Origin: a virus
Taxonomy: Duplodnaviria > Caudoviricetes
DNA length: 64,000 bases
Virus record (IMG/VR): IMGVR_UViG_2828164553_000001
Location: 32,001-96,000 of that record
Strand: one strand, 5' to 3'
Below the pieces are notes generated by a model that saw nothing but the letters and a program-made list of their open reading frames with translations, did no database searches and had not been told where the DNA came from. Each line of letters opens with the position of its first letter. Position 1 is the stretch's first letter. A program made the position numbers and the translations under genes. Positions 2,689-46,406 of this stretch are shown in pieces.

Positions 2689-2741
2689 ATCAGTGGGGTG
2701 GCTGAGGGGACTCGAACCCCCGACATCTGGAATCACAATCC
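2689..2741. repeat. att site (left) of T7-like prophage: displaced 3' half of tRNA-His
   Basis: 53-bp exact direct repeat of 46354..46406. Confidence 0.95.
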
Positions 2742-2833
2742 CGCCCTAGCCCGTAAGCATACAACGTTTTCTCGGATTTGTGACGCCGCGGGTGACGTAA
2801 AGATGACATCCGTGGCGTCACAGGTGACGCGCC

Positions 2834-2851
2834 AATTAGTCGGGGCTATAG
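2834..2851 (+). promoter_or_regulatory. Putative phage-RNAP promoter upstream of the RNAP gene
   Basis: AATTAGTCGGGGCTATA|G has T7-like geometry (17 nt, then +1 G) and matches 15833..15850 at 16 of 18 positions. Confidence 0.7.
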
Positions 2852-2907
2852 ACCAAACGAACTCTAAGTGGGGAGGAAGCACTCCTCCCCTCTACGCCAA
2901 GACAGTT

Positions 2908-2923
2908 ATCCCACATATGGGAT
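2908..2923. promoter_or_regulatory. Palindromic operator inside a possible sigma70 promoter (AAGACA-18-TATGAT)
   Basis: ATCCCACATATGGGAT; the motif recurs several times in this prophage. Confidence 0.7.
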
Positions 2924-3033
2924 ATGATCCGACCTCACTATAGAGGAGCCACTTATAGCTCTCTTCCAGTCCTACCGGAGATGCGCTTCAAGTGACATTT
3001 CCGGCCGTGCCGGTTTCAACTGTTCAGCCAATA

Positions 3034-3060
3034 CCTCCGCCTTCGGGCGGGGGCGTTTTT
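3034..3060 (+). terminator. Intrinsic terminator/attenuator just before the RNAP gene
   Basis: CCTCCGCC-TTCG-GGCGGGGG followed by a T-tract. Confidence 0.65.
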
Positions 3061-3101
3061 CGTTTGCCCATTCAATCTCAACTTCGGGACGCATTCCTAA
3101 T

Positions 3102-5525: not shown

Positions 5526-5541
5526 ATCCCACATTTGGGAT
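5526..5541. promoter_or_regulatory. Palindromic operator immediately after the RNAP stop codon
   Basis: ATCCCACATTTGGGAT. Confidence 0.7.
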
Positions 5542-5986: not shown

Positions 5987-6132
5987 CACGCGAAATCGAA
6001 CGGCTGCTGGAACAGGCCGCCTTGGAAAACGAACTGTATGGAGCGGTTTTCGCCTCCACCGATGCCCGCCTTATCGAAGCCGGCTACCTCCCCGAAGAAT
6101 CAGAATTCCATGACCCAGAAGAAAGCGAATAA
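5983..6132 (+). CDS. Small acidic hypothetical protein (49 aa)
   Basis: ATGA overlap; MTREIERLLEQAALENELYGAVFASTDARLIEAGY... Confidence 0.55.
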   Translation: MTREIERLLEQAALENELYGAVFASTDARLIEAGYLPEESEFHDPEESE

Positions 6133-6787
6133 GCGATACGTGTCCCCGGCCGGTGCCGCCATCTGGCCGCGGCTGAATGCCCCCGACACCAAGTACAACG
6201 CGGACGGCGAGTTCTCCGCCAAGCTCGCGATGGAAGAGTCAGACGCCGACACCCAGGCGTTCATCAAGAAGCTGACCGCAATCCGCGACGAAGCCTTTGA
6301 GCAGTTCAAATCCGAGAACCCGAAACATAAGAAGGCCGCACTGGCGGACTTCTTCGCTTCGGAAACGGACGACGAGGGTGACGAAACTGGCAGGGTTACG
6401 TTCAACTTCAAGATGAAGCACAAGATCAAGGCGAAGAAGACCGGCAAGGTCTACACAATGGTTCCGACCATCGTGAACTCCAAGAAGGAAGTGCTGAAGA
6501 ATCCGCCGAACATTGGCGGCGGCAGCCTTCTCAAGGTGAGCTTCGAGGCCGTCCCCTACTTCGCGGCGGCGGACAAGAAGTTTGGCATTTCGCTGCGCAT
6601 GGTCGGCGTCCAGATCATCAAGCTGGTCGAGTTCGGCGGCGCCAGCCGTGCAGCCGACGACTTCGATGAGGAGGATGGCGACGACATCGCAGACGGCGCA
6701 GATCGTCCGAGCGATGACGACGACTCCGATGATTCGGAAGACGACAGCGACAGCGACGGAGATGATGGCGACGACGGCGACTACTAA
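6110..6787 (+). CDS. T7 gp2.5-like single-stranded DNA-binding protein
   Basis: WPRLNAPD, IGGGSLLKVSF, GISLRMVGVQIIKLVEF and a very acidic tail ending in an aromatic residue. Confidence 0.92.
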   Translation: MTQKKANKRYVSPAGAAIWPRLNAPDTKYNADGEFSAKLAMEESDADTQAFIKKLTAIRDEAFEQFKSENPKHKKAALADFFASETDDEGDETGRVTFNFKMKHKIKAKKTGKVYTMVPTIVNSKKEVLKNPPNIGGGSLLKVSFEAVPYFAAADKKFGISLRMVGVQIIKLVEFGGASRAADDFDEEDGDDIADGADRPSDDDDSDDSEDDSDSDGDDGDDGDY

Positions 6788-7268
6788 GCCCTCGTCCAAG
6801 GTCACGAAGGGGGCGGCGCTTGCCGCCTCTTTCATTTTTTCCATAGACCCCGTTCCGGCTTCTCGCCCCCGCGTTACGCGCTGGGGCACGTACCACCTGA
6901 AGACCTACAAGACCTGGCTTGAAGCGGCAGGCAAGTACCTCAAGGGCCTATCCCACGTCGCAGGACACGGCATCCGCCCGGATACGCCACTGATCGTTGT
7001 CGCCGAGTTCGTCTGCCGAAAGCCCAAGACGACCAAGCTGTTGACGCCGAAGGGCGACATCGACAACTACCTGAAAGCCCCGCTGGACGCGATTACACAC
7101 GCCGGCCTGTGGGGCGACGACAAGTGGATCACCACCGTCGTCGCAACCAAGCGATTCCAGGAACCCGGCGAAGAGCCGCACACCGCGTTGTCAGTGTACG
7201 AAGCTCCGCGCGAGAGCCTGTTCAATCAACTCACTCAGTTCATCCGGGGGATCTTCCGGTGCGACTGA
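6765..7268 (+). CDS. rusA: RusA-family Holliday junction resolvase
   Basis: PVPASRPR and DIDNYLKAPLDAI...WGDD motifs; GGAGA RBS. Confidence 0.85.
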   Translation: MATTATTKPSSKVTKGAALAASFIFSIDPVPASRPRVTRWGTYHLKTYKTWLEAAGKYLKGLSHVAGHGIRPDTPLIVVAEFVCRKPKTTKLLTPKGDIDNYLKAPLDAITHAGLWGDDKWITTVVATKRFQEPGEEPHTALSVYEAPRESLFNQLTQFIRGIFRCD

Positions 7269-7630
7269 AAAAGATGGCCAACCCTGACCAGCTGTTCGTA
7301 ACCGCCTCAATGACGCGGCCGGACCACTCTGTCACTGGCGCCGAACTGGCGCGCATCCACCGCTCGCAGGGCTTCTCCAAGATCGCAGTCCACTACGTCA
7401 TCGAGCGCGACGGAACCGTCTTCGACGGCCGCGGTTTGGACGAGCCGGGCTGCTTGGCCGCGCGCGCAAACGACCGATCGATCCAGGCGTGTCTGGTCGG
7501 CGGTGTCGATGACGCCCTGACACCAACCAACAACTTTTCCAAGCAACAGCGAATGGCGCTGCGGCGAGTCGTGCGTAAGCACGGTCTTCCCGTGGTGTTC
7601 GACCGCGTGTGCCCACTACAGGAAATCTAG
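7259..7630 (+). CDS. T7 lysozyme (gp3.5) homologue, catalytically degenerate
   Basis: HYVIERDGTV...GR and SIQACLVGGVDD...NFSKQQ align with T7 gp3.5, but the Zn-ligand His residues and catalytic Tyr are missing. Confidence 0.85.
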   Translation: MRLKKMANPDQLFVTASMTRPDHSVTGAELARIHRSQGFSKIAVHYVIERDGTVFDGRGLDEPGCLAARANDRSIQACLVGGVDDALTPTNNFSKQQRMALRRVVRKHGLPVVFDRVCPLQEI

Positions 7631-7632
7631 CA

Positions 7633-8013
7633 ATGAAACTGTCCCGTCAAGCCAACCTGATCGTCGATCACCTCTACAACAACCAGCACATCACCTCGTG
7701 GCAGGCTGAGGGCGTCTACCGCGTCCGCCGCCTGGCGTCGCGCATTACCGAACTGAATCGTGCCGGCTACGACATCCGCAAGGAGCGTTGCGAAGACGCG
7801 ACGGGGCAGTCCTACACGCGCTACTCCTTCACCCGAGCGCAAAAGCGTCGCAGCACGCCGGTGCACCCGCAGACCCCCGAGCAGCCGCGCTTTCTGCTGG
7901 ATCGCCTGATCGACCTTTACCGCACCTACTGCGCGAAGGAACTGGGCCTGGGTGGCGATGACCTGGACACCGAGACCGAAGACTTCCGCCGCTTCCTCCA
8001 GGAGGCCAAGTAA
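7633..8013 (+). CDS. Winged helix-turn-helix DNA-binding protein
   Basis: ITSWQAEGVYRVRRLASRITELNRAGYDI pattern. Confidence 0.7.
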   Translation: MKLSRQANLIVDHLYNNQHITSWQAEGVYRVRRLASRITELNRAGYDIRKERCEDATGQSYTRYSFTRAQKRRSTPVHPQTPEQPRFLLDRLIDLYRTYCAKELGLGGDDLDTETEDFRRFLQEAK

Positions 8014-8183
8014 TGGAAAAGGTTCAATCCGCAATGCGCCTCGCCTTCGCAAACGCCACCAAAAACGTGCTGAAGGAAGAACGCGAGCGTACCTACGCGA
8101 TGGTCCGTTCGGCTTCCAACCGCCAACTGGGCGTGACCCACCGCAAGACCATGTGGTCGGTCGAGCGTGTCAGCCGACGCTGA
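8013..8183 (+). CDS. Small hypothetical protein (56 aa)
   Basis: GGAGG RBS; TAATG overlap. Confidence 0.55.
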   Translation: MEKVQSAMRLAFANATKNVLKEERERTYAMVRSASNRQLGVTHRKTMWSVERVSRR

Positions 8184-9801
8184 GTCTCAGTTCGTCGCCA
8201 AAGAGCCGTGCCCGAAGTGTGGTAGTCGCGACAACCTCGCGCGCTACGACGACGGGCACGGCTTCTGCTTCGGGTGCTCCCACTATGAGCCGGCAGATGG
8301 TGACGCCACACGCACGCAATCAAGGCCCCGCATGTCCGACGACTTTGCTCAGGGCGAAGCATCCGCCCTGGCCGCTCGCGGTCTGCAGGAAGAAACCTGT
8401 CGCAAGTTCTCCTATTGGGTAGGAAAGAACAAAGACGGCAAAACCTGCCAGATCGCCAACTACCGCCGCGACGGTCGCACCGTCGCTCAAAAACTCCGAT
8501 TCAAAGATAAGAAGTTCGCCTTCCTAGGCGACACCAAGGAAGCAGGACTGTTCGGCCAGCACCTCTGGCAACCCACGCGGCGATTAGTCATCACCGAAGG
8601 TGAAATCGACTGCCTTAGCGTGGCGCAAGTTCTCGGCCTGAAGTGGCCCGTAGTGTCAGTCCCGAACGGTGCGCAGGGCGCAGCCAAGGCCATCAAGCGT
8701 GAACTGGAGTGGGTCGAAAAGTTCGACGAAGTGGTCATCATGTTCGACATGGATGAGCCAGGCCAGACAGCCGCTCAGGAGGTCGCTGAAATCCTTTCGC
8801 CGGGCAAGGCACGCATCGCGCAGCTGCCGCTGAAAGATCCCAACGCGATGCTCCAAGCGGGCAACGGCGAAGCCATCGTCTCGTGCATCTACGAAGCTCA
8901 GACAGTTCGTCCAGACGGCATCGTGACCTTCGGCTCAGTACGCGAAAAAGCGCTGGCGCCAGTGGTCGTAGGGATGCCTTGGCCGTGGCCTGACCTGACC
9001 AACTACACGCTTGGACGACGCTACGGCGAAATCTATGGCCTGGGCGCAGGCACGGGCATGGGCAAGTCCGATGTGTTCGACGAAATCATCGTGTTCACGG
9101 CGACCACCTGCAACGAGAAGTGCGGCGTCCTCAAGCTGGAACAGCCACCTGCGGAAACCGCAAAGCGCCTGGCTGGCAAGTACGCATCCCGCCGCTTCCA
9201 TGTGCCCGACGCAGGCTGGACACAACAGGAGTTAGAAGACGCGTTCGACATCCTGGACAGCACCGGCAACGTCGTTCTTTACGACCACTTCGGCACCACC
9301 GACTGGGATGTCATCGCCTCCAAGATGCGGCACATGGCAGTTGCAGATGGCGTCAAACATATCTTCCTAGACCATCTGACGGCGCTCGCGGCCGACGCTG
9401 AGGACGAGAAGAAAGTGTTGGAACAGGTGATGGCTGCACTCGCCAAGTTGGCGATGGAGCTGAGCGTCTGCATCTACTTCATCTCGCACCTTACGACTCC
9501 CGAGAAGGGATCGCCCCACGAGGAAGGCGGGCGCGTGACCATCCGCCAGTTCAAGGGCAGTCGCGCTATTGGCTTCTGGTCGCACTTCATGTTCGGTCTG
9601 GAGCGCGATCAACAGGCGGCAGACATCTCCGTTCGCACCACAACGACTCTCCGCGTGCTCAAGGACCGCTACACCGGTCAAGCCGCGGGCAAGTGCATCT
9701 ACCTCCGCTACGACGAGCAAACCGGGCGACTCGTGCCATGCGCAGATCCCTACGCGGACAGCGGTGACGAGAGCTACGACGAAACACCGGGCGGCTATTG
9801 A
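8167..9801 (+). CDS. T7 gp4-like DNA primase/helicase
   Basis: Cys4 zinc finger, TOPRIM motifs EGEIDCLS and FDMD, Walker A GTGMGKS, FLDHL, LKDRYTG. Confidence 0.96.
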   Translation: MSADAESQFVAKEPCPKCGSRDNLARYDDGHGFCFGCSHYEPADGDATRTQSRPRMSDDFAQGEASALAARGLQEETCRKFSYWVGKNKDGKTCQIANYRRDGRTVAQKLRFKDKKFAFLGDTKEAGLFGQHLWQPTRRLVITEGEIDCLSVAQVLGLKWPVVSVPNGAQGAAKAIKRELEWVEKFDEVVIMFDMDEPGQTAAQEVAEILSPGKARIAQLPLKDPNAMLQAGNGEAIVSCIYEAQTVRPDGIVTFGSVREKALAPVVVGMPWPWPDLTNYTLGRRYGEIYGLGAGTGMGKSDVFDEIIVFTATTCNEKCGVLKLEQPPAETAKRLAGKYASRRFHVPDAGWTQQELEDAFDILDSTGNVVLYDHFGTTDWDVIASKMRHMAVADGVKHIFLDHLTALAADAEDEKKVLEQVMAALAKLAMELSVCIYFISHLTTPEKGSPHEEGGRVTIRQFKGSRAIGFWSHFMFGLERDQQAADISVRTTTTLRVLKDRYTGQAAGKCIYLRYDEQTGRLVPCADPYADSGDESYDETPGGY

Positions 9802-9833: not shown

Positions 9834-10079
9834 ATGACCCTCAAGACCACACTGCTGGCAATCCACGCCTTCCTAACTCCGGCCCCGAGCGTTGACGCCA
9901 TCTGCGCTGACCTGGATCGCACCCTGGGCAAACTGGACGCAGCCGAAGGAAAGCTGCGCGACCGCGCTGCAATCGCCGAAGCAAAGGCTGCCAAGTTGGT
10001 ACAGGAAGCCGTCGGCCACCGCTCGCGCGCCTTGCGTGCCGGTCGGGTCGCCAGTCGTATCAAGGCCATCATCGAATGA
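9834..10079 (+). CDS. Phage hypothetical coiled-coil protein
   Basis: AAGGA RBS before ATG 9834; ATGA coupling. Confidence 0.65.
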   Translation: MTLKTTLLAIHAFLTPAPSVDAICADLDRTLGKLDAAEGKLRDRAAIAEAKAAKLVQEAVGHRSRALRAGRVASRIKAIIE

Positions 10080-10696
10080 GCTACGGCGCCTACATCAAGG
10101 GCATCTTTCTGGACATGCCGGCCGCCGCACGCATCGTCTCCATCCTCGGTGGCGGCGCCCTGCGCTCGTTCTATGACGGCACTGCCGCCAAAGACTACGA
10201 CTTGTTCTTCCGTTCCTATCAGGACTACCTCGTTGCCTTCGCTGCGTTCGCGGACCAGGGCAACCGGTACAGGGAGCTGGCAGCGCCCAACGGCACCTCT
10301 CAGTTCCACGACCTGAGCACCGGCCGTCTCTTCAACTTGGTCGGCTTCCACTTCGACACGCCGCACGGCCATCGGGATGCATTCGATTTCCGCTGTTGCA
10401 TGTTCGTGGCGTGGCTGGAATTCAACCTTCCGACCACATCAGCGCACCCCGATGCTCCTGCAGACGCCGCGGCGAAGCGTCTCGTTGTGATGAACAACAA
10501 CGGCGACGAACGTACTTATGCTCGGATGCACCGCTACCGGGACTACGGCTACCGCCTCGACTTGGGTCTTGGTGAGGAACTCATCAAGCAGCCGGGTGAC
10601 GTTCCCCTGCCAAGTTTCGAGCGCGTCAAGCAGATCCTCAAAAGCTACCCCAAGGCAGCACGAGGAGTAGGCTCCGATGGCCTGGCTCGTCTTTGA
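10076..10696 (+). CDS. Nucleotidyltransferase (PolyA/CCA-head-like)
   Basis: GGGALR...KDYDLFF and FDF motifs. Confidence 0.7.
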   Translation: MSYGAYIKGIFLDMPAAARIVSILGGGALRSFYDGTAAKDYDLFFRSYQDYLVAFAAFADQGNRYRELAAPNGTSQFHDLSTGRLFNLVGFHFDTPHGHRDAFDFRCCMFVAWLEFNLPTTSAHPDAPADAAAKRLVVMNNNGDERTYARMHRYRDYGYRLDLGLGEELIKQPGDVPLPSFERVKQILKSYPKAARGVGSDGLARL

Positions 10697-12590
10697 CATT
10701 GAGACCAACGGCCTACTCGACGAACTGACCACTATTCACTGCATCTCCCTCCAGGAAGTAACTCCGGAGGGAGTACCTGTGAGTGCTGTGCTCTCAGCCA
10801 ACCGCGTGAATGGGGAGCTGACCATCGAGCAGGCCTTGGAAATGCTTCAGGGCGCGGATGCCGTGGTCGGCCACAACATCGTCAACTTCGACGTGCCTAC
10901 CATCCGCAAGCTGTACCCGAAGTTCAAGATCAAGCGCGCACTGGACACGATGTTGCTGTCCACACTTCTTTGGCCTGACCTCCGCGACCGCGACTTCAAC
11001 TTCGCCAAGAAGAACCCCGGCAAGTTGCCAGGCCAGTTCATCGGCCGGCATTCGCTGGAGTCTTGGGGCTACCGCTTGGGCGAATGGAAGGGCGACTACT
11101 CCGCCGTGATGAAGGCCAAGGGCCTCGACCCGTGGGCTGAGTGGAATCAGGAGATGGACGACTACTGCGACCAGGACGTACGCGTCACGCAGAAGCTCTT
11201 CGCCCTCCAGATGACCAAGGGCCTGTCGCAAGAAGCGATTGACCTGGAGCACGGCATCGCACCCATCCTCCAGCGTCAAACCGCCTATGGCTTCCTGTTC
11301 GATCAGAAGAAGGCCGACAAGTTGCAACGCGAATTCATGGTCACAAAGGCCAGGCTCACAGACGAGCTGACCCGTGTGTTTCAGCCCTGGCGCGAGAGCC
11401 TCGGCATGTTCGTCCCGAAGGTCAACAACGCCAAGCTCGGCTACGTCAAAGGGGTACCACACGAGAAGTTTAAGTCCTACGTCTTCAATGCCGGCTCTCG
11501 CGATCACATCGCAAAGCGCCTGAAGGCCCTGCACGGGTGGAAGCCCGCTGTGTTCACGCCGGAGGGTCGCCCAAAGATCGACGAAGAGACCCTTGCGCAC
11601 CTCAAGTACCCCGAAATTCCCATGCTGTTGCGCTACCTGACTGTGGCGAAGCGCGCCGGGCAACTTTCCGAACCTCCGCCGAAGCTCAAGAAGGACGGCA
11701 CCCCAAGCAAGTCGAAGAAGAAATCCGAAGCCTGGATCACTCAGGTTAAGAAGGATGGACGCATCCACGGGCGGGTGAATCAGAACGCAGCGGTCACCGG
11801 GCGCATGACGCACTCGGGACCGAACATGGCACAGGTCCCCAAGGTCCAGAAGTGCAACGAGGGGATTCTCTTCGGCGAGGCAGGTGGCTGGGGCTATGAG
11901 TGCCGCGAGCTGTTCACCGTGCCCAAGGGCAAGAAGCTGGTGGGCGCCGACGCCTCGGGCCTGGAGCTGCGCTGCCTGGCGCACTTCATGGCCGCCTTCG
12001 ACGGCGGCGCCTACGCGACCGTACTGCTGGAAGGCGACATCCACGCCGAGAACCAGAACGCAGCCGGCCTGCCGTCGCGCGACAACGCGAAGACCTTCAT
12101 CTACGCCTTCCTCTATGGGGCCGGCGACGAGAAGATCGGGTCGATCATCGGGAAGGGCCGCAAACACGGCAAGGCGCTTAAGGAGAAGTTCCTCCAGGGT
12201 CTTCCAGCGCTCGCCAAACTGGTCAATGGCGTCAAGAAGCGCGCCAAGGCGAAGGGCTATCTCATCGGCCTGGACGGTCGGAAGCTGCACATCCGCAGCG
12301 ACCACGCTGCACTCAACACGCTCCTGCAGTCCGCAGGCGCGCTGGTCATGAAGAAGGGACTGCACATCCTGGACGTGCGCCTGCAGGAAGCCGGCCTTGC
12401 GCCGGGAGTGAACTACGAGTTCGTCGGCAACATCCACGACGAGTGGCAGATCGAGGTGGACGAGAAACATGCCGAGTTCGTCGGACGGTCAGCGGTCGCT
12501 TCGATCCGTGCGGCAGGCGATTACTTCGGCTTTCGCTGCCCACTCGATGGCGAATACAAGATCGGCAACAACTGGGCTGAAACCCACTGA
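10677..12590 (+). CDS. T7 gp5-like family A DNA polymerase
   Basis: Exonuclease motifs FDIET, GHNIVNFD, YCDQDV; polymerase motifs DASGLELR, KTFIYAFLYG, HDE. Confidence 0.97.
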   Translation: MAWLVFDIETNGLLDELTTIHCISLQEVTPEGVPVSAVLSANRVNGELTIEQALEMLQGADAVVGHNIVNFDVPTIRKLYPKFKIKRALDTMLLSTLLWPDLRDRDFNFAKKNPGKLPGQFIGRHSLESWGYRLGEWKGDYSAVMKAKGLDPWAEWNQEMDDYCDQDVRVTQKLFALQMTKGLSQEAIDLEHGIAPILQRQTAYGFLFDQKKADKLQREFMVTKARLTDELTRVFQPWRESLGMFVPKVNNAKLGYVKGVPHEKFKSYVFNAGSRDHIAKRLKALHGWKPAVFTPEGRPKIDEETLAHLKYPEIPMLLRYLTVAKRAGQLSEPPPKLKKDGTPSKSKKKSEAWITQVKKDGRIHGRVNQNAAVTGRMTHSGPNMAQVPKVQKCNEGILFGEAGGWGYECRELFTVPKGKKLVGADASGLELRCLAHFMAAFDGGAYATVLLEGDIHAENQNAAGLPSRDNAKTFIYAFLYGAGDEKIGSIIGKGRKHGKALKEKFLQGLPALAKLVNGVKKRAKAKGYLIGLDGRKLHIRSDHAALNTLLQSAGALVMKKGLHILDVRLQEAGLAPGVNYEFVGNIHDEWQIEVDEKHAEFVGRSAVASIRAAGDYFGFRCPLDGEYKIGNNWAETH

Positions 12591-12619: not shown

Positions 12620-12913
12620 GTGCTCCTTCGCAGCGCCCGTAGGCGGGCACAGAAGCGCGGCCTCCCGTTCGACCTGGAAAGGGACGACATACGGATTCCG
12701 AGCTTCTGTCCCGCCCTGGGCATTCCGCTGTTCCGCTCTGTCGGACTGAAGGCGCAGGGGCCGAACTCCCCAACCTTGGATCGCATAACGCCCGAGCTGG
12801 GCTATGTGCGCGGCAACGTCCGCGTCATCTCCAGCCGCGCCAACCAAATCAAATCAGACGCCACCCCAGCAGAGCTGCTGCAGGTGGCCTGTTTCTATCA
12901 GGAGCATCAATGA
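12620..12913 (+). CDS. HNH-type endonuclease
   Basis: CP...PTLDRI...GYVRGNVRVIS..AN..K pattern; start uncertain. Confidence 0.75.
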   Translation: MLLRSARRRAQKRGLPFDLERDDIRIPSFCPALGIPLFRSVGLKAQGPNSPTLDRITPELGYVRGNVRVISSRANQIKSDATPAELLQVACFYQEHQ

Positions 12914-13248: not shown

Positions 13249-13625
13249 CCCCCAAGCAAATCCTCCAGACCTTCGCCGCATTGGTTGTCCTCGCCGCACT
13301 CGGCGCGGGCGGCTATGCCGCCTGGTCCTATCGCTCCATGGCGGAGCGCGTCACATCGCTTGAAGCAACGGCGCGTGACTACGAAGACCTCAAGAAATCC
13401 GTGGCGACCCTCCAGCAGGAGGCCGTTCGCCGTGCCTCTTTCGACAAAGCAATCCGGGACTTGCGCGCCGAGCGCAACCGTTCCGTGGAGACCGCCGCAA
13501 ATGAAAACCCTGTTGTTGCTGGCTACCTGCACCAGCGCATTCCTGACGAGCTGCGCAACGCGCACTTCGCTGATCGAACAGTACCTTCAGCCGTGTCAGG
13601 TCGAGGGCAAGCACAGCTCCCTTGA
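13245..13625 (+). CDS. Rz: Rz-like inner-membrane spanin
   Basis: N-terminal TM helix plus coiled coil; overlapped by a lipoprotein in another frame. Confidence 0.75.
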   Translation: MTPKQILQTFAALVVLAALGAGGYAAWSYRSMAERVTSLEATARDYEDLKKSVATLQQEAVRRASFDKAIRDLRAERNRSVETAANENPVVAGYLHQRIPDELRNAHFADRTVPSAVSGRGQAQLP

Positions 13626-13755
13626 CGCGGTGATGGCCGACCCGGCTTCCGAGACATACGACCTCTACCACTTCGGCGGCAACGCCCAGGACGCCCTTGC
13701 GCGCTGCAACGCCGACAAGGAATCCATCAAGCGCCTTCAGGAGGGCAAGCGATGA
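13501..13755 (+). CDS. Rz1: Rz1-like outer-membrane lipoprotein spanin
   Basis: Lipobox LTSC, LQPC, C-terminal ALARCNADKESI; GGAG RBS. Confidence 0.78.
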   Translation: MKTLLLLATCTSAFLTSCATRTSLIEQYLQPCQVEGKHSSLDAVMADPASETYDLYHFGGNAQDALARCNADKESIKRLQEGKR

Positions 13756-13967
13756 GCCTCACCCCAATGCCGCGCTGGTCGAAGGACACCGAAGTGTTCG
13801 TCCGGCCGTCACATTTCCACGCCGGTCCCGGTGTCGTCGAAATCCACACGCGCTACAAGGACCTCAACAACGTCCAGCACGCACCCGTCGAGCACATCGC
13901 CGAGGCGACGGAGGCTGCGCTGCGCGAGCTGGCCTATGAAGTAGGGCGCCGGGCGGTGTTCGCATGA
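13752..13967 (+). CDS. Phage hypothetical protein
   Basis: ATGA coupling at both ends. Confidence 0.6.
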   Translation: MSLTPMPRWSKDTEVFVRPSHFHAGPGVVEIHTRYKDLNNVQHAPVEHIAEATEAALRELAYEVGRRAVFA

Positions 13968-31340: not shown

Positions 31341-31350
31341 CGAGGAACAA

Positions 31351-34119: not shown

Positions 34120-34361
34120 GCAAGGCAAGCAAGGATTCGATGGAACGCCTGCATGGCGCCATCGCAGACAAGCTGAGCGACACCATCGAGAACATGGAGG
34201 CAGGCGACAAGGGACTGGCCGCGTTACTGAACGTGGCCCGCCAATTCCTCAAGGACAATGGCATCGACTCCGTGGCAACTGAGACCAATCCGGTTGGCAA
34301 GGTAGCCGAGGCAGTCTCGAAGCATCCCTTCGATCCCTCCGAGAGCCTGAAGCACCACTGA
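34116..34361 (+). CDS. Terminase small subunit (gp18-like)
   Basis: LH...LLNVARQFLKDNGI; precedes the large subunit. Confidence 0.85.
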   Translation: MSKASKDSMERLHGAIADKLSDTIENMEAGDKGLAALLNVARQFLKDNGIDSVATETNPVGKVAEAVSKHPFDPSESLKHH

Positions 34362-36040
34362 TGGGGGCGTCGGGGATTACTTCCCTGCACGTCATCCACC
34401 CCTGGGAGGACTTCCGTAACTTCGCGTTCGACCTCTGGACGCATCTGGCCCTGCCGTCGCCAACGCCCGTGCAGTACGACATCTGTTCGTACCTCCAGCA
34501 CGGGCCGCGGCGCCGCATGGTCCAGGCGTTCCGAGGCGTGGGCAAGTCATTCCTCACGGCTGGATACGTGTGCTGGCTTCTCTGGAAAGACCCGCAGCAC
34601 AAGATCATGGTGGTCTCGGCGAGCAAGGAGCGCGCTGACGCGTTCTCGGTGTTCGTTAAACAGATCATCGAGACCTTCGAGCCGCTGTCGCACCTGCGCC
34701 CCCGCAGCGACCAGCGCAACTCCAACCTGGCCTTCGACGTTGGCCCTGCCCTCCCCGACCAATCGCCTTCGGTGAAGTCGGTAGGCATCACAGGCCAGCT
34801 TACCGGCTCGCGCGCTAACACGATTATTCCCGATGACATCGAGGTCGTGAAGAACTCGCAGACCATCGTGCAGCGAGAGAAGCTCGCAGAACTCATCAAG
34901 GAGTTCGATGCGGTACTGAAGCCAGGTGGACAGGTGATCTACCTCGGCACGCCACAGACCGAAGAGTCGCTCTACAACAAGCTGCCGGAACGCGGGTACG
35001 ACATCCGCATTTGGCCCGCACGCTTTCCGAAGGACATGAAGCAGCGCGTCGCATACGGCGCCATGCTCGCTCCAGTGATCGCGGCGGCGTTCGACGACAA
35101 TCAGGCCCTCGCCTGGACGCCGACCGACTCCAGGCGCTTCGACGAGAAGGACCTGATGGAGCGCGAAGCGTCCTACGGACGTGCTGGTTTCGCTCTGCAG
35201 TTCATGCTGGACACCACGCTATCTGACGCTGAGAAGTATCCGCTCAAGCTGTCGGACTTCATCGTCATGGACGTTGATCGCGAGGTCGCGCCGATCCGTG
35301 TCGTGTGGTCCTCCGGTAAACAGCAGGTGGTCGAGGAATTGCCCTCCGTGGGCTTTTCGGGCGACCGCTGGCACCAGCCGATGTACGTGGCTCCCGAGAT
35401 GGAAGAGTTCACCGGATCGCTGATGACCGTCGATCCGTCCGGACGGGGCGGCGACGAGACGGGCTTCTGCGTCACCAAAGTTCTGCGCGGCATGATTTAC
35501 CTGCGCCGCTCGGGCGGCTTCAAGGGCGGCTACGAGGACTCCACGCTGGAGGGCTTAGCGCACATTGCGCGCGCAGAGAAGGTCCAGCTAATCCTTGTCG
35601 AATCAAACTTCGGCGACGGCATGTTCAACAAGCTGTTCGAGCCGGTTCTGAAGCGGATCTACCCGTGCTCCGTCGAGGAAATCAAACACTCAACGCAGAA
35701 GGAGCGCCGAATCTGCGACACCATCGAGCCGGTTTTGAACCAGCATCGCCTGGTCGTGGACAAGGCCGTAATCCGCGCCGACGCGGACACCGAAAACCAC
35801 CACTACCAACTGTTCCACCAACTCTCCCGAATGACCCGCGACCGCGGCGCCGTCAAGCACGACGACCGCGTGGAACCGCTCGCAATGGCACTCGCGTACT
35901 GGGCCGACCAGCTTGCACGCAATGTTGAAGACGAAGAGTCGCGGCGCATGGAGGAACTGCAAGAACAGGACTACCTCGACTTCATCCAATCGGTCACTGG
36001 CCGTGCGGTGGACGAGGCGAACTTCTACGACAACTACTAA
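34361..36040 (+). CDS. Terminase large subunit (gp19)
   Basis: QAFRGVGKS, GQLTGSRA, LGTPQ, VDPSGRGGDETG, HDDR motifs. Confidence 0.97.
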   Translation: MGASGITSLHVIHPWEDFRNFAFDLWTHLALPSPTPVQYDICSYLQHGPRRRMVQAFRGVGKSFLTAGYVCWLLWKDPQHKIMVVSASKERADAFSVFVKQIIETFEPLSHLRPRSDQRNSNLAFDVGPALPDQSPSVKSVGITGQLTGSRANTIIPDDIEVVKNSQTIVQREKLAELIKEFDAVLKPGGQVIYLGTPQTEESLYNKLPERGYDIRIWPARFPKDMKQRVAYGAMLAPVIAAAFDDNQALAWTPTDSRRFDEKDLMEREASYGRAGFALQFMLDTTLSDAEKYPLKLSDFIVMDVDREVAPIRVVWSSGKQQVVEELPSVGFSGDRWHQPMYVAPEMEEFTGSLMTVDPSGRGGDETGFCVTKVLRGMIYLRRSGGFKGGYEDSTLEGLAHIARAEKVQLILVESNFGDGMFNKLFEPVLKRIYPCSVEEIKHSTQKERRICDTIEPVLNQHRLVVDKAVIRADADTENHHYQLFHQLSRMTRDRGAVKHDDRVEPLAMALAYWADQLARNVEDEESRRMEELQEQDYLDFIQSVTGRAVDEANFYDNY

Positions 36041-36053
36041 CCAAGGAACCACC

Positions 36054-36209
36054 ATGACCGAGTTTTTAATCACTGCCGCCGTCTTCCTGGCGTTCGGCCT
36101 GTTTATCCGTAACCGCATCCGCAAGGCCAAGGCAGCGTCCGCATCTTCGGCCGGCGCACCTGTCGGCGGCGGCTCCACTGGCACCAAGCCGCACACGCAG
36201 GTTCGTTGA
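36054..36209 (+). CDS. Small single-TM protein
   Basis: AAGGA RBS; MTEFLITAAVFLAFGLFIRNRIRK. Confidence 0.6.
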   Translation: MTEFLITAAVFLAFGLFIRNRIRKAKAASASSAGAPVGGGSTGTKPHTQVR

Positions 36210-36655
36210 GCGAATCCATCCGCATCGCAACCCCGCTCACCAAGGTGAGCGAGGGTTTGCGCCTTCGGGCATATGTGTGCCCGGCCGGCAAGCTAACTAT
36301 CGGATGGGGCCACACCGGCACCGACGTGAAGCCAAGTATGACGATCACCCCGGAGCGCGCTGAGCAGCTCCTGGAGGCCGACTTAAAGCGCGCCCTGGCA
36401 GGCGTAAGGGAGCACGTGCGCGTGCCTCTCAAAGCGCACCAGGAGGCCGCTCTCGTGGATTTCGTATTCAATCTGGGCGCAGAGCGGCTACGCACATCTA
36501 CCCTGCTGCGTCTGCTGAACTCTGGAAACTACACGGCAGTGTCCGCACAGCTGACCCGCTGGGTGTATGGCACGGTCAACGGAAAGAGCCGCAAGCTGCC
36601 CGGGCTGATCACCCGACGCGCCGCGAACGTGGCGATGTGGGAAACCAATTCTTGA
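36206..36655 (+). CDS. Endolysin (GH24 lysozyme)
   Basis: EG.RL.AY.CPAG..TIGWGHT catalytic motif, FNLG, GLITRR. Confidence 0.92.
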   Translation: MSESIRIATPLTKVSEGLRLRAYVCPAGKLTIGWGHTGTDVKPSMTITPERAEQLLEADLKRALAGVREHVRVPLKAHQEAALVDFVFNLGAERLRTSTLLRLLNSGNYTAVSAQLTRWVYGTVNGKSRKLPGLITRRAANVAMWETNS

Positions 36656-38303: not shown

Positions 38304-38348
38304 ATCCCGAGATTGGGACTTGACCCGATCATGGAATTGATCTAGCTT
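38304..38348 (+). promoter_or_regulatory. Early sigma70 promoter 1 with adjacent operator
   Basis: ATCCCGAGATTGGGAC (38304-19) abuts TTGACC-17-TAGCTT. Confidence 0.7.
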
Positions 38349-38354
38349 ATATCC

Positions 38355-38570
38355 CATCGGCCAGCCACACCGGCCGGCGCGATCCCTGAGCCGCCCAGCG
38401 CGGCGCTAAGAGAAGCAATCGGATTCAACCGGCCCCAGCCCGTGCAATGCGCTACTGGGGCGGCCTTCAAGGGCCTGCGACTACGCCGAGAGGCAACCGC
38501 AGGGGAACCGAAAGAGGCCAAGGCGGCTAGAGGCCGCACGGTTCCGGGGTGCTCTCAGGCATAGCCGCAA
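38355..38570 (+). ncRNA. Candidate structured non-coding RNA 1
   Basis: Closing stem CCTGAG/CTCAGG encloses several hairpins; no credible ORF. Confidence 0.5.
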
Positions 38571-38571
38571 C

Positions 38572-38622
38572 ATCCCAACATTGGGAAATAACTTGACAAC
38601 GGGACGATTCCAGATTTAGGAT
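38572..38622 (+). promoter_or_regulatory. Early sigma70 promoter 2 with two operators
   Basis: ATCCCAACATTGGGAA, TTGACA-18-TAGGAT, and ATTCCAGATTTAGGAT overlapping the -10. Confidence 0.75.
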
Positions 38623-39864: not shown

Positions 39865-40053
39865 ATGACATCGCACCAAAGCATCATCGACCGCGATATT
39901 GAGCAATACGAAAGCGACGTAGAGCACCACTCAATGGCGCTCCTGCGCTGTCCGAACGGTCAGGAGTGGCTGCACCGCCGCCGGAGGGATGCGGCCGCGT
40001 CAGCCGCAAGCGCGCTGCGGACGTACCGCGAAGCGCTGAAGGCCACCGCATGA
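39865..40053 (+). CDS. Early hypothetical protein
   Basis: GGAG RBS; ATGA overlap with ardA. Confidence 0.55.
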   Translation: MTSHQSIIDRDIEQYESDVEHHSMALLRCPNGQEWLHRRRRDAAASAASALRTYREALKATA

Positions 40054-40676
40054 GCAATCCACGCATCTACGTGGCCTGCCTGGCCTCCTACAACAATGGC
40101 GTCCTGCATGGGCGCTGGATCGAACTGGACGGGATGGACGCCGACGACGTGCAGGCGGAGATTGCCGCGATGCTGCGCGAGTCGCCACACCCGAACGTGA
40201 CCGCGGAGTGCCCGGAGTGCGAGGGCAGCGGCGACGCCGCCCCTGATCGTCCAGCGGGAGTCCCGCCGCTGTGCGCAATATGCAACGGCACCGGCAAGGT
40301 GCCAAGCGCTGAGGAATGGGCCGTCCATGACAGCGAAGACCTGCCGACCAGCTTCCGGGACACCGAACACCCCGACCTGTCCGCTTTGATGGAACGACTG
40401 GAGGAGCTGGAAGACCTCAGTGATGACGAACGCGAAGCCTTCGATGCCTTCTGCGAGGTCGAGGGGGAAGAGGACGTGGATACGTTCCGCGAGCGTTACA
40501 TCGGCGAGTTCAACAGCTGGGCGGAGATGGCCGAGCACCACGCGGACGAAACTGCGCTTCTTGAGGACGTCCCCGAGAACCTGCGGCGCTACTTCGATTA
40601 CGAAAGCTACGGCCGTGACATGCGGGCGGGGGGCGAGGCCTACGAATCGCACGGCCACTACTTCTGGAGCCACTGA
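40050..40676 (+). CDS. ardA: ArdA antirestriction protein with inserted CxxCxGxG zinc finger
   Basis: IYVACLASYNNG.L.G.W, EEWAVHD, YFDYESYGRD motifs; highly acidic. Confidence 0.88.
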   Translation: MSNPRIYVACLASYNNGVLHGRWIELDGMDADDVQAEIAAMLRESPHPNVTAECPECEGSGDAAPDRPAGVPPLCAICNGTGKVPSAEEWAVHDSEDLPTSFRDTEHPDLSALMERLEELEDLSDDEREAFDAFCEVEGEEDVDTFRERYIGEFNSWAEMAEHHADETALLEDVPENLRRYFDYESYGRDMRAGGEAYESHGHYFWSH

Positions 40677-42603: not shown

Positions 42604-43494
42604 TTAGTCGTACTTGTAATTACAGGTAGTCTCAGGCTGCCCGTTTACGGTCCCTGTGACACAGATAACTCCATTGACTTTCCTCACGGGCGCCCCTTTC
42701 TCCATATTAACACCGATGATGAAAAGCTGATTCACAAACGCTGCCACATCCGTCTGACTCGACCCTGCGAAGTTGTAAACGGTCGTAACCCCAGGATTCT
42801 TGGGCAATTGATCTTTGTTTTGCGGTATTACATTGTTCGCGTTGTCTCGATATGATCCAGGCACCGGCTTAAACGTCTGAAAATCGCGATCCCAGAAATA
42901 TCGAGCCACTCCACCATCTGCATAACGCACGATGATTGGGATTTTGATATCACGCGCTAAAACTGGATTTACACCATTAACGATCATTTGAAGCATCCCG
43001 TAGAAGGGATGGCCGAGGAGCCAATTACTAACCGCCACTTGCCTACCAGGATTATACATGTCGTCATAAGGGGTTGTCGGAAATCCCGGCTGAGCAATGA
43101 TTTCAGGCTCTGCGGATGCTGTTCGCATAGCAGCCATGTAATTACTCATCCCGGACTCTACCGGCAGAACCGTGGGTACGATTACTGGGAGACAACCAGG
43201 GCGTGGCTGAGAACTGGGAGGACAAGGCACATCGCCTTCCCAGGTTCTTTGCATTCTCCACTTAAGAGTTCGGTCGTTACTGGCGTTTACGACATATATC
43301 TCTGTGGTGGAGGGCAAAGGTTGCGTTTGGGCGTACTGCCGCGCAGCTATCTGCATAGCTCCAGGCGCGCAACCTTCGCAGGAAATGGCTACTTCCTTGA
43401 CCTGTGCTGAAACATCACCGGTATATAAAAAAGAGCATACCGCGATTACCGGCAGTAATAGGGTGACTAGCTTTCCTGTGACCTTGTCGTGCAT
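42604..43494 (-). CDS. Secreted Cys-containing hypothetical protein (moron)
   Basis: GGAG RBS, Sec signal peptide (VSA-Q), three Cys pairs, AT-rich. Confidence 0.75.
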   Translation of the reverse strand: MHDKVTGKLVTLLLPVIAVCSFLYTGDVSAQVKEVAISCEGCAPGAMQIAARQYAQTQPLPSTTEIYVVNASNDRTLKWRMQRTWEGDVPCPPSSQPRPGCLPVIVPTVLPVESGMSNYMAAMRTASAEPEIIAQPGFPTTPYDDMYNPGRQVAVSNWLLGHPFYGMLQMIVNGVNPVLARDIKIPIIVRYADGGVARYFWDRDFQTFKPVPGSYRDNANNVIPQNKDQLPKNPGVTTVYNFAGSSQTDVAAFVNQLFIIGVNMEKGAPVRKVNGVICVTGTVNGQPETTCNYKYD

Positions 43495-43707
43495 TTCTCG
43501 CTCCATGATTTTAGGTTTTGTGCAGGCCCCCTGTTGCCCACGTCCGTTTATAGCACGTGAAGAAGCTGCGTCTACTTTCTTGACGCGATTCGCAGAAGGC
43601 GCGGCCTGCAAACGAATGGTCTTGCCGCATCTATGTCCTTCAATCGTTTCGAAAAATGGCAATACCACGCCTTTGGGAGGCTAATCTTGTGAACCACGTT
43701 GTGAAAA

Positions 43708-43958
43708 TGAACGTCGACGATCTTTTCGACTACATGTCGCAAAGGTCTGCGAAAGCGGGCAAGCGCGCTTTGGAGCGGGACAAGATCACAGCAGATGTTT
43801 CTTCGCGTCCTGCTGCGGAGACGTCAAAGATTGACCTGATCCTCGACTCCAGGGGACGCCCCCTGGTCTCCATCTGTGAGATGACCGGGCGCTTTAATAG
43901 CCGCCTGCGAGACACAACGCATGACACCTACGACGACGACGAGGGGGCCGATCAATGA
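43708..43958 (+). CDS. Hypothetical protein
   Basis: ORF with acidic tail and ATGA coupling; start uncertain (possibly 43690). Confidence 0.45.
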
Positions 43959-44149
43959 GCTGCGCCGCGCGTATGGTCACGACTTCGCACAACACGGGGA
44001 ACGATCTTCTGACTGCAATTGGCGATGCACTCGCAGCGGCACGTGTGGCGGCGCCTGAGGTGCCTGTCCAACTGCACGCGATTTCAAGGGAAGGCGGAGA
44101 GTGGGAGCTGACAGTAGTGCGTCGCCCGATGCCCGAGAGCAACTCTTGA
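43955..44149 (+). CDS. Hypothetical protein
   Basis: GAGGGGG RBS; ATGA overlap. Confidence 0.45.
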   Translation: MSCAARMVTTSHNTGNDLLTAIGDALAAARVAAPEVPVQLHAISREGGEWELTVVRRPMPESNS

Positions 44150-44644
44150 AGCCGGCAGAAGCGGCGCGAGAAGCGGGCATTCTTTTCGTGAAGACAGTGT
44201 TCCTTGCCTTTCTGTGCGGAGGCGTACTTCTAACACTCCTGGCGCCATTCCTGGCCTTATTTGCCCACGCTTGATGGCAGCCATGTCGCTGCCGGCACAA
44301 GAATTGCTAGTGATACTAACTTCGCATGGCATCTGAGGTTCTCGACTGAGATCGTTCTACACCCACCACATAACCCTAATTCGCGATATGGCCTAAATTT
44401 GATACGAGAGAAAGACTCAGTGAACTTCTTGAAGAGCCTGCTTGCTCTACTTTGCCGCCGTCCAAGATTCTTCCTAATCGAGGCTACGCCCAACCAGAAA
44501 GGCTTCTGGGTGGACGTGATCAACGTCAATTGCATGTATATCGGTCTCGGGATCGGTATCATTGCAATTGAGGGACATGACCCTTAATCGCGAAGAAGGA
44601 TGGATGCGGCTTCGCGCTCACCAGGCACATACGGAGCCGTCTCC

Positions 44645-45049
44645 ATGACACAGCTGACCACCGAAGAACTCGTGCAGATTCTCCACATCGCTCTTGGCGA
44701 GCTTCGCCAGGATGTTGAACCGGGGCTATTGGCATCCAAGATTCTCTGCCTCACTGCAACCTACAACCACCCGGGAACCCTGCAGTCCGAAATTACGAAG
44801 TACGTCAAAGACCTGACGCCTTCGGCAGCGTCCCGCCACATCATGGACTGGTCGTTTCGCGGCAAGACTCTCAAGCCGGGCGATCAGCCCAGCGGCATGG
44901 AATTTATCCAGCAGCAGGCCGATCCACTGTATCCGCGCCGCAACCTCCTCCACATGACCCCTAAGGGTCTTCAATACCTCTCAAACCTCACTGATCGCGT
45001 CAACGAGGCGCTGCAGAAGCGCGCCGTGCGTTCGGCGAAATCCGCATGA
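44645..45049 (+). CDS. MarR-like winged-helix repressor candidate
   Basis: GTLQSEITK...LTPSAASRHI HTH and DP..PRRNLLHMTPKG wing; GGAG RBS; directly upstream of the integrase. Confidence 0.75.
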   Translation: MTQLTTEELVQILHIALGELRQDVEPGLLASKILCLTATYNHPGTLQSEITKYVKDLTPSAASRHIMDWSFRGKTLKPGDQPSGMEFIQQQADPLYPRRNLLHMTPKGLQYLSNLTDRVNEALQKRAVRSAKSA

Positions 45050-45059
45050 TGGAGATGCA

Positions 45060-46322
45060 ATGCCGTTACGACTTAAGGGCACAGCCCCCCGACCCGGGGA
45101 GGCTGACCGTCGCTATTACATGATCGACGTGCAGGTGGAAAAGCGCCGGGAGCGACTATCCGCCGGAACTCGCGACAAGAACCTCGCGCTCCGTAAGGAG
45201 CAGAACATCATCGACGCGCTACGTGACGATCCTGAAGTCACTACGCTGGAACTCAAACGCATCCTCCGGGGCGAGCGTCTTGCCGCCATCCAGGATCGCC
45301 GCAGCGAAGATCGGGCCTGGACGCTGAAAGAAGCGTGCGACAAGTGCCTCAAGGACCGCGAGGACGGTGGCTGGGGTGCGGCGTCCTCCAACGACACCTA
45401 CGCAACTAACTGCCGCATGATCCAGAAATTCCTGGGAGCGGACACGCCGGTTGCCTTCATCGATCAAGAAAAGATTCGCGACCTTGCAGACCATCTCCTC
45501 GACGAAGAGGAGAACGCGCCTGCCACGGTAAACCGCAAGCTCTTCGCGCTGATGCACGTCTTGGCTTACGCCAAGCAGCACAAGCAGTACCCGAAGGAGC
45601 TCCCCAAGTGGAAACCGCACAAGGAAGGCGACAACGCTCGCCAGTTCGTGCTGACCGCGGAAGACGAGCGGGTGATATTCGATGCAATCGCCAAGCTCGA
45701 CGACCGACCGGACAACCCGCTCGGCGGCAACCAGGTCTCGCGCGACGCTGCGGACTTCGTTGACTGCTTTACCTTCTTGGCGGACGTTGGCTGCCGCTTC
45801 TCTCAGGCGCTGAAAGTGCGCTGGCGGGACATCGACTGGGACCTTATGCCGGGCGTCGTAGGCATCAAGTTCTGGCGCAAGGGAGAGCAGAAAGGAGGGA
45901 GGGTTCGCACTATTCCCTGCACATCCCGCGTGGTCGATGTACTCAAGCGGCGACGGGCGCTGGGAGGAGATGGCCCATTCTCGGGACTGCGCAGGCAGCG
46001 AGGCACCGAGCTATGGAACATGGCAAAAGCAAGGACCAACCTGGCTAGGGAAGAAGAGTGCGTTCCCCACTGCTTGCGGCACACGTGCGCAACCCGCTTG
46101 CTTGCTCGTACGGGCGACCTGAAGTTGGTTCAAGAATGGCTCGGACACACCAAGATTGAGACCACGGCGGCCATCTACGCGAAGGTGTTGGTGGACACAA
46201 AAGTGCGAGCGCTGAGTGCACTGCAAGACGGGTGGAATGGCGCGTCACCTATCCCAGATGTGGGAACAATCCAGGACTGCAACCTATCCCAACATCGGGA
46301 CGACCCGACAGTAACCCAGTGA
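45060..46322 (+). CDS. int: Tyrosine integrase of the T7-like prophage
   Basis: GCR, KGG, HCLRH, LGH and IY catalytic motifs; adjacent to att. Confidence 0.95.
   Translation: MPLRLKGTAPRPGEADRRYYMIDVQVEKRRERLSAGTRDKNLALRKEQNIIDALRDDPEVTTLELKRILRGERLAAIQDRRSEDRAWTLKEACDKCLKDREDGGWGAASSNDTYATNCRMIQKFLGADTPVAFIDQEKIRDLADHLLDEEENAPATVNRKLFALMHVLAYAKQHKQYPKELPKWKPHKEGDNARQFVLTAEDERVIFDAIAKLDDRPDNPLGGNQVSRDAADFVDCFTFLADVGCRFSQALKVRWRDIDWDLMPGVVGIKFWRKGEQKGGRVRTIPCTSRVVDVLKRRRALGGDGPFSGLRRQRGTELWNMAKARTNLAREEECVPHCLRHTCATRLLARTGDLKLVQEWLGHTKIETTAAIYAKVLVDTKVRALSALQDGWNGASPIPDVGTIQDCNLSQHRDDPTVTQ
46251..46301. promoter_or_regulatory. Two palindromic operators in the integrase 3' end
   Basis: ATCCCAGATGTGGGAA (46251-66) and ATCCCAACATCGGGAC (46286-301). 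Confidence 0.65.
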
Positions 46323-46353
46323 AGCTAAAGCCTTTTCGGTCAAAACAAGGGAA

Positions 46354-46406
46354 ATCAGTGGGGTGGCTGAGGGGACTCGAACCCCCGACATCTGGAATCA
46401 CAATCC
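46354..46406. repeat. att site (right) of the T7-like prophage
   Basis: Identical to 2689..2741. Confidence 0.95.

Follow-up and report, generated by a model that had tools for sequence, protein, structure and literature searches.

A probable temperate T7-type podophage integrated at a tRNA-His gene, with predicted operators of a MarR-fold repressor around its RNA polymerase gene

Integration site and genome organisation

The sequence analysed here is a window of 64,000 nt (the whole stretch under study), corresponding to bases 32001–96000 of the 121,172-bp IMG/VR 'provirus' record IMGVR_UViG_2828164553_000001. It carries a 43,665-bp prophage of T7 type that is integrated site-specifically at the 3' end of a tRNA-His(GTG) gene, and so is present in the lysogenic state. 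An earlier reading of the sequence without database searches (the original prediction) had proposed a complete temperate T7-like phage in tRNA-His. Comparison with empty sites agrees with that proposal, as do the completeness of the gene set and a module of MarR-like regulator, integrase, phage attachment site (attP) and RNA polymerase (RNAP). The features of the element are listed in Table 1.

The prophage is bounded by the perfect 53-bp direct repeats that had been predicted, 43,665 bp apart. The right copy consists of the 3' 48 nt of tRNA-His(GTG) plus 5 nt, while the left copy is a displaced fragment lying 88 bp from tRNA-Lys(CTT) (nt 2525–2600). In the six best-matching Xanthomonas genomes, the tRNA-Lys, His, Arg(TCT) and Pro(TGG) genes form an unbroken cluster with no insert, and nt 2458–2741 and 46354–46512 of the window map to this one contiguous locus with an overlap of exactly 53 bp. 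The right flank is 99–100% identical to these empty-site loci, and the tRNA-Lys/tRNA-His adjacency is present in 41 of 41 Xanthomonas species-representative genomes. Since the flanks meet at the empty sites through a single 53-bp copy, the repeats reflect a precise site-specific insertion rather than chance. The attL core sequence is the same in six relatives. The host is very probably Xanthomonas, as the RNAP is 96% identical to one found in X. arboricola pv. juglandis CFBP 2528. To the right of attL, the P' arm carries GTGACG repeats that are retained even in a relative with 87% RNAP identity, and an inverted copy occurs in the P arm (nt 46239–46250); these are candidate integrase arm-type sites.

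Plus-strand genes for replication, virion proteins and packaging/lysis follow one another in T7 order, as originally predicted (assignments by PHROG and Pfam). The RNAP gene precedes the replication, structural and terminase modules, collinear on one strand, which is the arrangement of T7-like podophages. The RNAP itself, of the phage-encoded single-subunit kind that marks such phages (in the sense of the Autographiviridae), was predicted correctly: it aligns end to end with T7 gene product 1 (gp1), keeps the motifs around T7 D537, D812, K631 and Y639 together with the C-terminal foot, and retains DGSC, HDS and the C-terminal FFA. The predicted pairing of a MarR-like gene with an integrase also holds, as a MarR-fold regulator homologous to those of phages LUZ100 and Pasto lies directly upstream of the tyrosine integrase gene (int). 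With int, the 53-bp core and RNAP in the order given in Table 1, attP of the free genome falls between int and RNAP, as is typical of temperate T7-like phages. All hallmark open reading frames (ORFs) are uninterrupted, and a close relative (IMG/VR provirus G002) aligns in two long blocks that jointly cover nt 3102–36648, in line with the earlier reading, which noticed no disrupted gene.

Table 1. Features of the prophage (window coordinates).
Feature	Position	Strand	Evidence and remarks
attL core	2689..2741	.	53 bp, displaced copy of tRNA-His 3' end; perfect repeat of 46354-46406
GTGACG repeats (candidate integrase arm-type sites)	2780..2829	+	at 2780, 2792 and 2824; variant 2803; inverted copy 2816-2821; P' arm, read from sequence
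Candidate phage-RNAP promoter	2834..2852	+	perfect match to AATTAGTCGGGSCTMTAGA; upstream of RNAP gene
Sigma-70-like promoter	2899..2928	+	AAGACA-18-TATGAT; spacer holds O1
Predicted operator O1	2908-2923	+	perfect palindrome
Intrinsic terminator	3034..3063	+	~40 bp before RNAP start codon; kept in relatives
Single-subunit T7-type RNAP, 806 aa	3102..5522	+	34% identical to T7 gp1, full length
Second candidate phage promoter	5152..5170	+	three mismatches to AATTAGTCGGGSCTMTAGA; inside 3' part of RNAP gene
Predicted operator O2	5526..5541	+	perfect palindrome; 4 nt past RNAP stop codon
gp2.5-like single-stranded DNA-binding protein (SSB)	6038..6787	+	phrog_112, E 2.5e-40
RusA Holliday-junction resolvase	6765..7268	+	PF05866, E 1.6e-15; at T7 gene 3 position
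gp3.5 (T7 lysozyme) homologue	7259..7630	+	Amidase_2, E 7e-7
HTH_39 winged-helix DNA-binding protein	7609..8013	+	PF14090, E 1.5e-12
gp4-like primase/helicase	8167..9801	+	phrog_239, E 1.6e-186
Nucleotidyltransferase-like protein (weak match)	10076..10696	+	phrog_1614, E 1.2e-9; no Pfam match
Family A DNA polymerase	10677..12590	+	phrog_17, E 1.3e-141
Endonuclease VII-like / HNH-like nuclease	12620..12913	+	phrog_3322, E 2.9e-32
Rz-like match and two lipobox proteins	13285..14290	+	phrog_456, E 3.5e-6; lipoboxes in translations
gp6-like exonuclease	14257..15099	+	phrog_107, E 1.1e-50
Deoxynucleoside monophosphate (dNMP) kinase	15122..15838	+	phrog_139, E 1.6e-55; PF21448, E 9e-24
Third candidate phage promoter	15833..15851	+	perfect match to AATTAGTCGGGSCTMTAGA; head of structural module
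Portal	16253-17824	+	portal, scaffold and capsid: phrog_449, phrog_1052, phrog_267
Scaffold	17970-18716	+	same PHROG set
Major capsid protein	18793-19743	+	same PHROG set
Strong terminator	19816..19847	+	after capsid gene, T-phi position of T7; 14-bp stem then T-run
Tail tubular A and B, four internal virion proteins, two fibres	19875..33375	+	phrog_446, 457, 308, 805, 342; PF03906, PF09327
Holin, small (TerS) and large (TerL, 34361-36040) terminase subunits, GH24 endolysin (36206-36655)	33817..36655	+	phrog_175, 891, 38, 7
Early region	38304..38622	+	sigma-70-like promoter ~38321; best sigma-70 promoter TTGACA-18-TAGGAT at 38593-38622
Predicted operator, early region	38304		precedes second TTGAC promoter (sigma-70-like, ~38321)
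Predicted operator, early region	38572		abuts -35 of TTGACA-18-TAGGAT
Predicted operator, early region	38607		over -10 of TTGACA-18-TAGGAT
Predicted operator, inside prophage	39054		palindrome match
ArdA anti-restriction protein (early gene)	39966..40676	+	PF07275, E 1.9e-33
Predicted secreted protein, family unassigned	42604..43668	-	likely start 43506; signal-peptide-like N-terminus
MarR-fold repressor candidate	44645..45049	+	ORF opens 44600; homology, family profile, structure model
Tyrosine integrase	45060..46322	+	PF00589, E 6e-17
Two predicted operators	46251-46266, 46286-46301	+	int 3' end (P arm of attP)
attR core	46354-46406	-	within reconstituted tRNA-His(GTG), 46359-46435; repeat and tRNA gene call

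Regulator, predicted operators and candidate promoters

The gene directly upstream of int specifies a protein with 27% identity to LUZ100 gp10 (E 4e-9). A profile search returned 834 relatives, most of them 105–130 aa long and beginning at profile position 16, from which the true start of the regulator, a protein of 134 aa, is placed at nt 44645. The family profile also matches LUZ100 gp10 (E 3e-40), Pasto gp7 (E 3e-17) and three metagenomic relatives, in each case encoded immediately before an integrase gene that is in turn followed by RNAP. Among 60 members of the family, 30 are matched by MarR_2 and 10 by MarR. A word-based homology search with the regulator returned one cluster only, and comparison with solved structures by sequence gave no match. 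In the AlphaFold model (predicted local distance difference test score, pLDDT, 94) the protein forms a winged helix and long helices at its termini; it displays the winged helix-turn-helix fold and the N- and C-terminal dimerisation helices of the MarR family, and among the PDB matches listed, the top ones are almost all MarR-family regulators (Template Modelling (TM)-score 0.44–0.66). The fold of the regulator, as modelled, is that of MarR.

MarR-family proteins typically bind a palindrome of 16–20 bp, from which a ligand or signal releases them, and a 16-bp palindrome, ATCCCA-N4-TGGGAT, recurs in the window. Allowing up to two mismatches, nine sites were counted against 1.85 expected, a number reached in none of 100 shuffles, and all nine lie within the prophage. 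Most of them flank the RNAP gene, lie at the early promoters or fall within the 3' end of int (Table 1). O1 is kept in five of six relatives while its flanks vary, the operator positions of the early region are conserved in relatives, and the proviruses G002–G004 have sites at matching positions, with conserved half-sites and a variable N4 spacer.

A more diverged IMG/VR provirus, G005, is informative, as its regulator is only 36% identical to the one described here. It contains no ATCCCA-N4-TGGGAT sites, and has instead eight ATCCAC-N2-GTGGAT palindromes (1.5 expected). They lie on either side of the RNAP gene (ahead of its start and, at the O2 position, behind its stop), at the early promoter, in front of the regulator gene and at the int 3' end. 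The AT-rich loop of its RNAP is identical, the specificity loop shows two conservative substitutions, and the motif AATTAGTCGGG is unchanged. With both regulator and palindrome changed while the RNAP loops are nearly identical, the palindromes track the regulator and not the polymerase. This covariation supports the assignment of repressor and operator, for which binding is predicted, and together with the pattern of palindromes it lends in silico support to candidate regulator sites at the RNAP promoter. By the same comparison, this lineage and that of G005 look heteroimmune.

Candidate promoters for the phage RNAP are represented by AATTAGTCGGGSCTMTAGA, with three sites in the window (0.03 expected). 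At nt 2834 the geometry is T7-like: the 5' portion is rich in A and T, and CTATAG sits at the start. All three sites are syntenic wherever the stretch is present in four relatives, G005 included; that at 2834 is nearly invariant where present, and those at 5152 and 15833 are found in all four. As the 5152 site lies in coding sequence, its conservation is weaker evidence. The promoters at 2834, 5152 and 15833 would drive the RNAP gene, the replication genes and the structural genes, respectively. An exact k-mer repeat search found no promoter, and ACTCTAAG-type motifs occurred at chance level. The sequence CCTCACTATAGAGGAG at nt 2933 resembles a T7 promoter; being unique in the window and not conserved in relatives, it was rejected as a general phage promoter.

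Gene content, cargo and neighbouring elements

The original prediction named RusA, ArdA and a dNMP kinase, and all three are matched by their Pfam families; the nucleotidyltransferase it also named is present as a nucleotidyltransferase-like protein, with a weak match only. A six-frame search of the record detected no ATP-dependent ligase, which bears out the earlier remark that none was recognisable. T7 endonuclease I had no match in the record either, in a search that is uninformative since its control matched nowhere. The gene mix described as unusual is thus real but modest, and comes down to RusA at the gp3 position, ArdA in the place of Ocr and the absent ligase. The start of RusA was chosen among in-frame ATGs downstream of a GGAG. 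Those at nt 6762 and 6765 lie within the last stretch of the SSB gene, after which there is a strong terminator: a hairpin with a T-run (nt 6806–6840), inside the 5' part of the RusA frame. Expression of RusA is either attenuated here or begins from a non-canonical start.

In the gp3.5 homologue, alignment with T7 gp3.5 and LUZ100 gp17 revealed an internal deletion and replacement of the zinc ligand His17 by Thr and of the catalytic Tyr46 by Val; LUZ100 gp17 retains both residues. Given a separate GH24 endolysin (PF00959, E 3.7e-41), the homologue may survive only as an RNAP inhibitor. Among the virion proteins, the largest internal protein has 1207 aa, a 730-aa ORF (nt 23487–25679) has no family match and is gp15-like by position only, and one of the two tail fibres carries the T7 N-terminal domain.

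Spanins had been described as displaced. An Rz-like match and two lipobox proteins (the first with a probable start near nt 13501, the second at 13964–14290) do occur at 13.3–14.3 kb, where an LPAM_1 match fell under the Pfam cut-off, but candidates are found at the usual place as well: the endolysin is followed by a membrane protein (nt 36741–37094) and a lipobox protein (nt 37305–37568), which brings the lipobox proteins to three. The extra lipoproteins could have exclusion or cargo functions.

The packaging/lysis part is followed by an apparently non-coding stretch of 1.2 kb and then the early genes, including ArdA. Beyond these lie a cargo gene of low GC content, which is read in the opposite direction, and three small ORFs. 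The regulator and integrase genes come last, and the integrase is 26–30% identical to those of LUZ100 and Pasto (E 1e-25). The cargo gene, in a region of 0.52 GC, occupies an insert (nt 42157–43808; about 50% GC) that is unique to this prophage copy. It specifies a protein of ~300 aa with no match in Pfam, PHROG or PADLOC, has its own terminator (nt 42257–42233) and is absent from five relatives. It is possibly a lysogenic-conversion gene.

Around the prophage (nt 1–2600 and 46468–64000), each of three neighbouring tRNA genes of one cluster seems to harbour a different integrative element. On the left, an integrase gene (nt 900–2087) adjoins tRNA-Lys. On the right, tRNA-Arg(TCT) is reduced to its 3' 45 nt (nt 46468–46512), and is followed by UmuD/UmuC-like genes, a methyltransferase gene and the tail genes of a lambda-like siphovirus (J-like, nt 53438–57886; tape measure, nt 59089–61725). 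The tRNA-Pro gene and the remainder of tRNA-Arg are absent from the 121-kb record.

Related proviruses and phages

A megablast search of the left 24.3 kb of the prophage (nt 2742–27000) against 50,697 phage records returned only fragments of up to 290 bp; the right part was placed by the protein identity of TerL. The best protein identities among deposited phages were 43% for RNAP, 45% for the capsid protein and 57% for TerL, and the top protein matches were mostly to phages of alpha- and betaproteobacteria plus LUZ100, and included the integrase-encoding Pasto and LUZ100. Under the practice of the International Committee on Taxonomy of Viruses, members of a phage genus share at least 70% nucleotide identity over the genome. 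With matches of no more than 290 bp in the left part and a TerL identity of at most 57%, no deposited phage places the element in a classified genus.

Much closer relatives exist as proviruses. RNAPs with 95–96% identity were found in six isolate-type IMG/VR records, and one with 87% in a metagenome record. Three full-length records align with 88–90% of the prophage at 89–95% nucleotide identity, and G005 with 75% at 78%. Wherever the left junction is present in relatives it carries the same tRNA-His core. An RNAP of this kind occurs in just one of the 41 species representatives of Xanthomonas, which makes the lineage a sporadic one. Compared with CFBP 2528 the RNAP is 96% identical in protein and 89% in DNA, and compared with G005 87% and 78%; protein identity above DNA identity indicates that the RNAP is under purifying selection. 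In a 79-kb provirus record, L013 (IMGVR_UViG_2599185107_000001), the RNAP match ends at residue 570 of 806, perhaps because the same prophage lineage is represented there by a truncated or rearranged copy.

The original prediction also suggested that the phage may be a new lineage, to be abandoned on near-identity to a characterised phage; none of the deposited phages is close. Novelty stands with respect to deposited phage genomes, with hallmark identities of 43–57%, but not for the kind of phage, which has been described, nor for the sequence as such, as proviruses with 78–95% identity are public. Temperate T7-like phages that carry int beside RNAP and encode a MarR-like regulator are known from LUZ100, Pasto, pelagiphages and a prophage of P. 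putida KT2440 (PMC10134795). Judged by pairwise identities and the shared MarR-int-RNAP module, the element is a new, roughly genus-level lineage of this already described class.

Model of lysogeny and alternative explanations

The features described above most probably represent a temperate T7-type podophage in tRNA-His(GTG) with operators for a MarR-fold repressor that governs the RNAP and early genes, a reading held with high confidence. In the free genome the order would be early sigma-70 promoters, ArdA and small early genes, repressor, integrase, attP and RNAP, and after RNAP the replication, structural, and packaging and lysis genes. Following infection, host RNAP starting at the early promoters would transcribe ArdA, the regulator gene and int, then cross attP and continue into the RNAP gene. 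The phage polymerase would next amplify itself from the promoter at nt 2834 and switch on the later modules. In lysogeny, a repressor dimer would bind ATCCCA-N4-TGGGAT at the early promoters, at both ends of the RNAP gene and at the int 3' end, the site before RNAP lying in the spacer of a weak sigma-70-like promoter. Lacking the polymerase, the three AATTAGTCGGGSCTMTAGA-type promoters would stay silent; in addition, integration at attP separates the RNAP gene from the early host-transcribed operon. The scheme is the same as the lysogeny model for Pasto and LUZ100 (PMC10134795). What is added here is a full map of operator sites and the covariation of repressor and operator; binding, repression, promoter use, excision and particle formation are predictions.

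Several observations weigh against this model. The operator match at nt 42995 falls in the cargo gene and is probably due to chance, and in this lineage there is no operator directly upstream of the regulator gene. The regulator itself matches no Pfam family at E <= 0.01, so it is labelled here as MarR-fold or MarR-like and not as a curated family member. Candidate phage promoters number only three, one of them in coding sequence. No excisionase was recognised among the prophage genes, and the direct terminal repeats of the linear genome of T7-like podophages, expected here at about 37.1–38.3 kb, could not be located, since a prophage holds a single copy of the repeat. The lack of a recognisable excisionase could be explained if the repressor also took part in integration and excision, as an architectural or directionality factor, and so coupled immunity to recombination. 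This idea stems from the two operators in the P arm, between the candidate integrase arm site and the core, an arrangement that recurs in G005 with its own palindrome type; it is speculative and unlikely.

The missing excisionase also enters into the possibility that the prophage, intact-looking and site-specifically integrated as it is, is cryptic and would yield neither excision nor particles, and so do the gp3.5 homologue without the amidase zinc ligand and catalytic Tyr, and the lack of a family match for the 730-aa protein at the gp15 position. The separate GH24 endolysin makes the amidase loss harmless, however, the att repeats are perfect and every hallmark ORF is open and full length. 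Diverged variants (78–95% nucleotide identity) at the same site, with mostly synonymous changes and differing cargo, point to a circulating phage, and a defective prophage is considered decidedly unlikely. Less probable still is that the ATCCCA-N4-TGGGAT palindromes are promoters of the phage RNAP and not repressor operators. By eye, the stretch at nt 5526 shares TAATAC, CAC and GGGA with the T7 promoter, and two copies flank the RNAP gene, where T7-like phages have promoters. Yet the sites are palindromic, some lie over sigma-70 -35 or -10 elements and some within int, and in G005 they are replaced by another palindrome although one RNAP loop is identical and the other has two conservative changes, the regulator being the protein that has diverged. 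It is the non-palindromic AATTAGTCGGG motif that stays constant with the RNAP.

For temperate T7-like phages, an emerging clade, the control of lysogeny is so far no more than a model, which was put forward for Pasto and LUZ100. The Xanthomonas lineage described here offers natural lysogens with exact attB and attP sites and a compact operator set around the polymerase gene, as well as a natural pair, heteroimmune by prediction, with the same polymerase and promoter motif and differing repressor and operator, so that the model becomes directly testable. A new RNAP–promoter pair plus repressor may be usable in synthetic circuits. When phages are selected for biocontrol, a lytic lifestyle should not be taken for granted in T7-type phages of plant-associated Xanthomonas.

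Comparison with known systems

The nearest proviruses, CFBP 2528 and G002–G005, share the att site and architecture, and 75–90% of the prophage aligns with them at 78–95% identity. They differ in the cargo region (40.7–43.8 kb), the secreted-protein gene being unique to the present copy, and G005 differs in repressor and operator type. LUZ100 (OP329100; PMC10134795) has the same T7 gene order and, as here, an operon of MarR-like regulator and tyrosine integrase directly upstream of RNAP. Its regulator and integrase are homologous to those of the prophage, and both genomes have a phage-specific promoter (in the prophage a candidate one) before RNAP, a terminator between int and RNAP and a GC content of ~61%. 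Identities of hallmark proteins are only 40–55%, however, and LUZ100 keeps T7 endonuclease I, catalytically intact amidase residues and tRNA genes, where the prophage has RusA, ArdA and an altered gp3.5 homologue. LUZ100 could not be shown to lysogenise (PMC10134795), whereas the element described here is found integrated in tRNA-His.

Pasto (MT708545), a Rhizobium/Agrobacterium phage, is likewise temperate and T7-like. Its winged-helix regulator gene immediately precedes int and RNAP, and in the published model, as cited in PMC10134795, MarR sites flank the RNAP promoter. The Pasto integrase is 30% identical, and its gp7 is detected by the regulator profile (E 3e-17) while showing no pairwise BLAST similarity to the regulator. 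Pasto gp23 is annotated with HTH_39, as is the HTH_39 protein of the prophage. Pasto differs in that genes spanning ~2.8 kb and a tRNA-Leu separate int from RNAP, and also in having endonuclease I. T7 itself shares an RNAP that is 34% identical with catalytic motifs kept, collinear modules, a terminator after the capsid gene and a similar promoter geometry. It carries Ocr in place of ArdA, endonuclease I in place of RusA, a ligase that has no counterpart here and an active amidase, and is strictly lytic, without an integrase or repressor.

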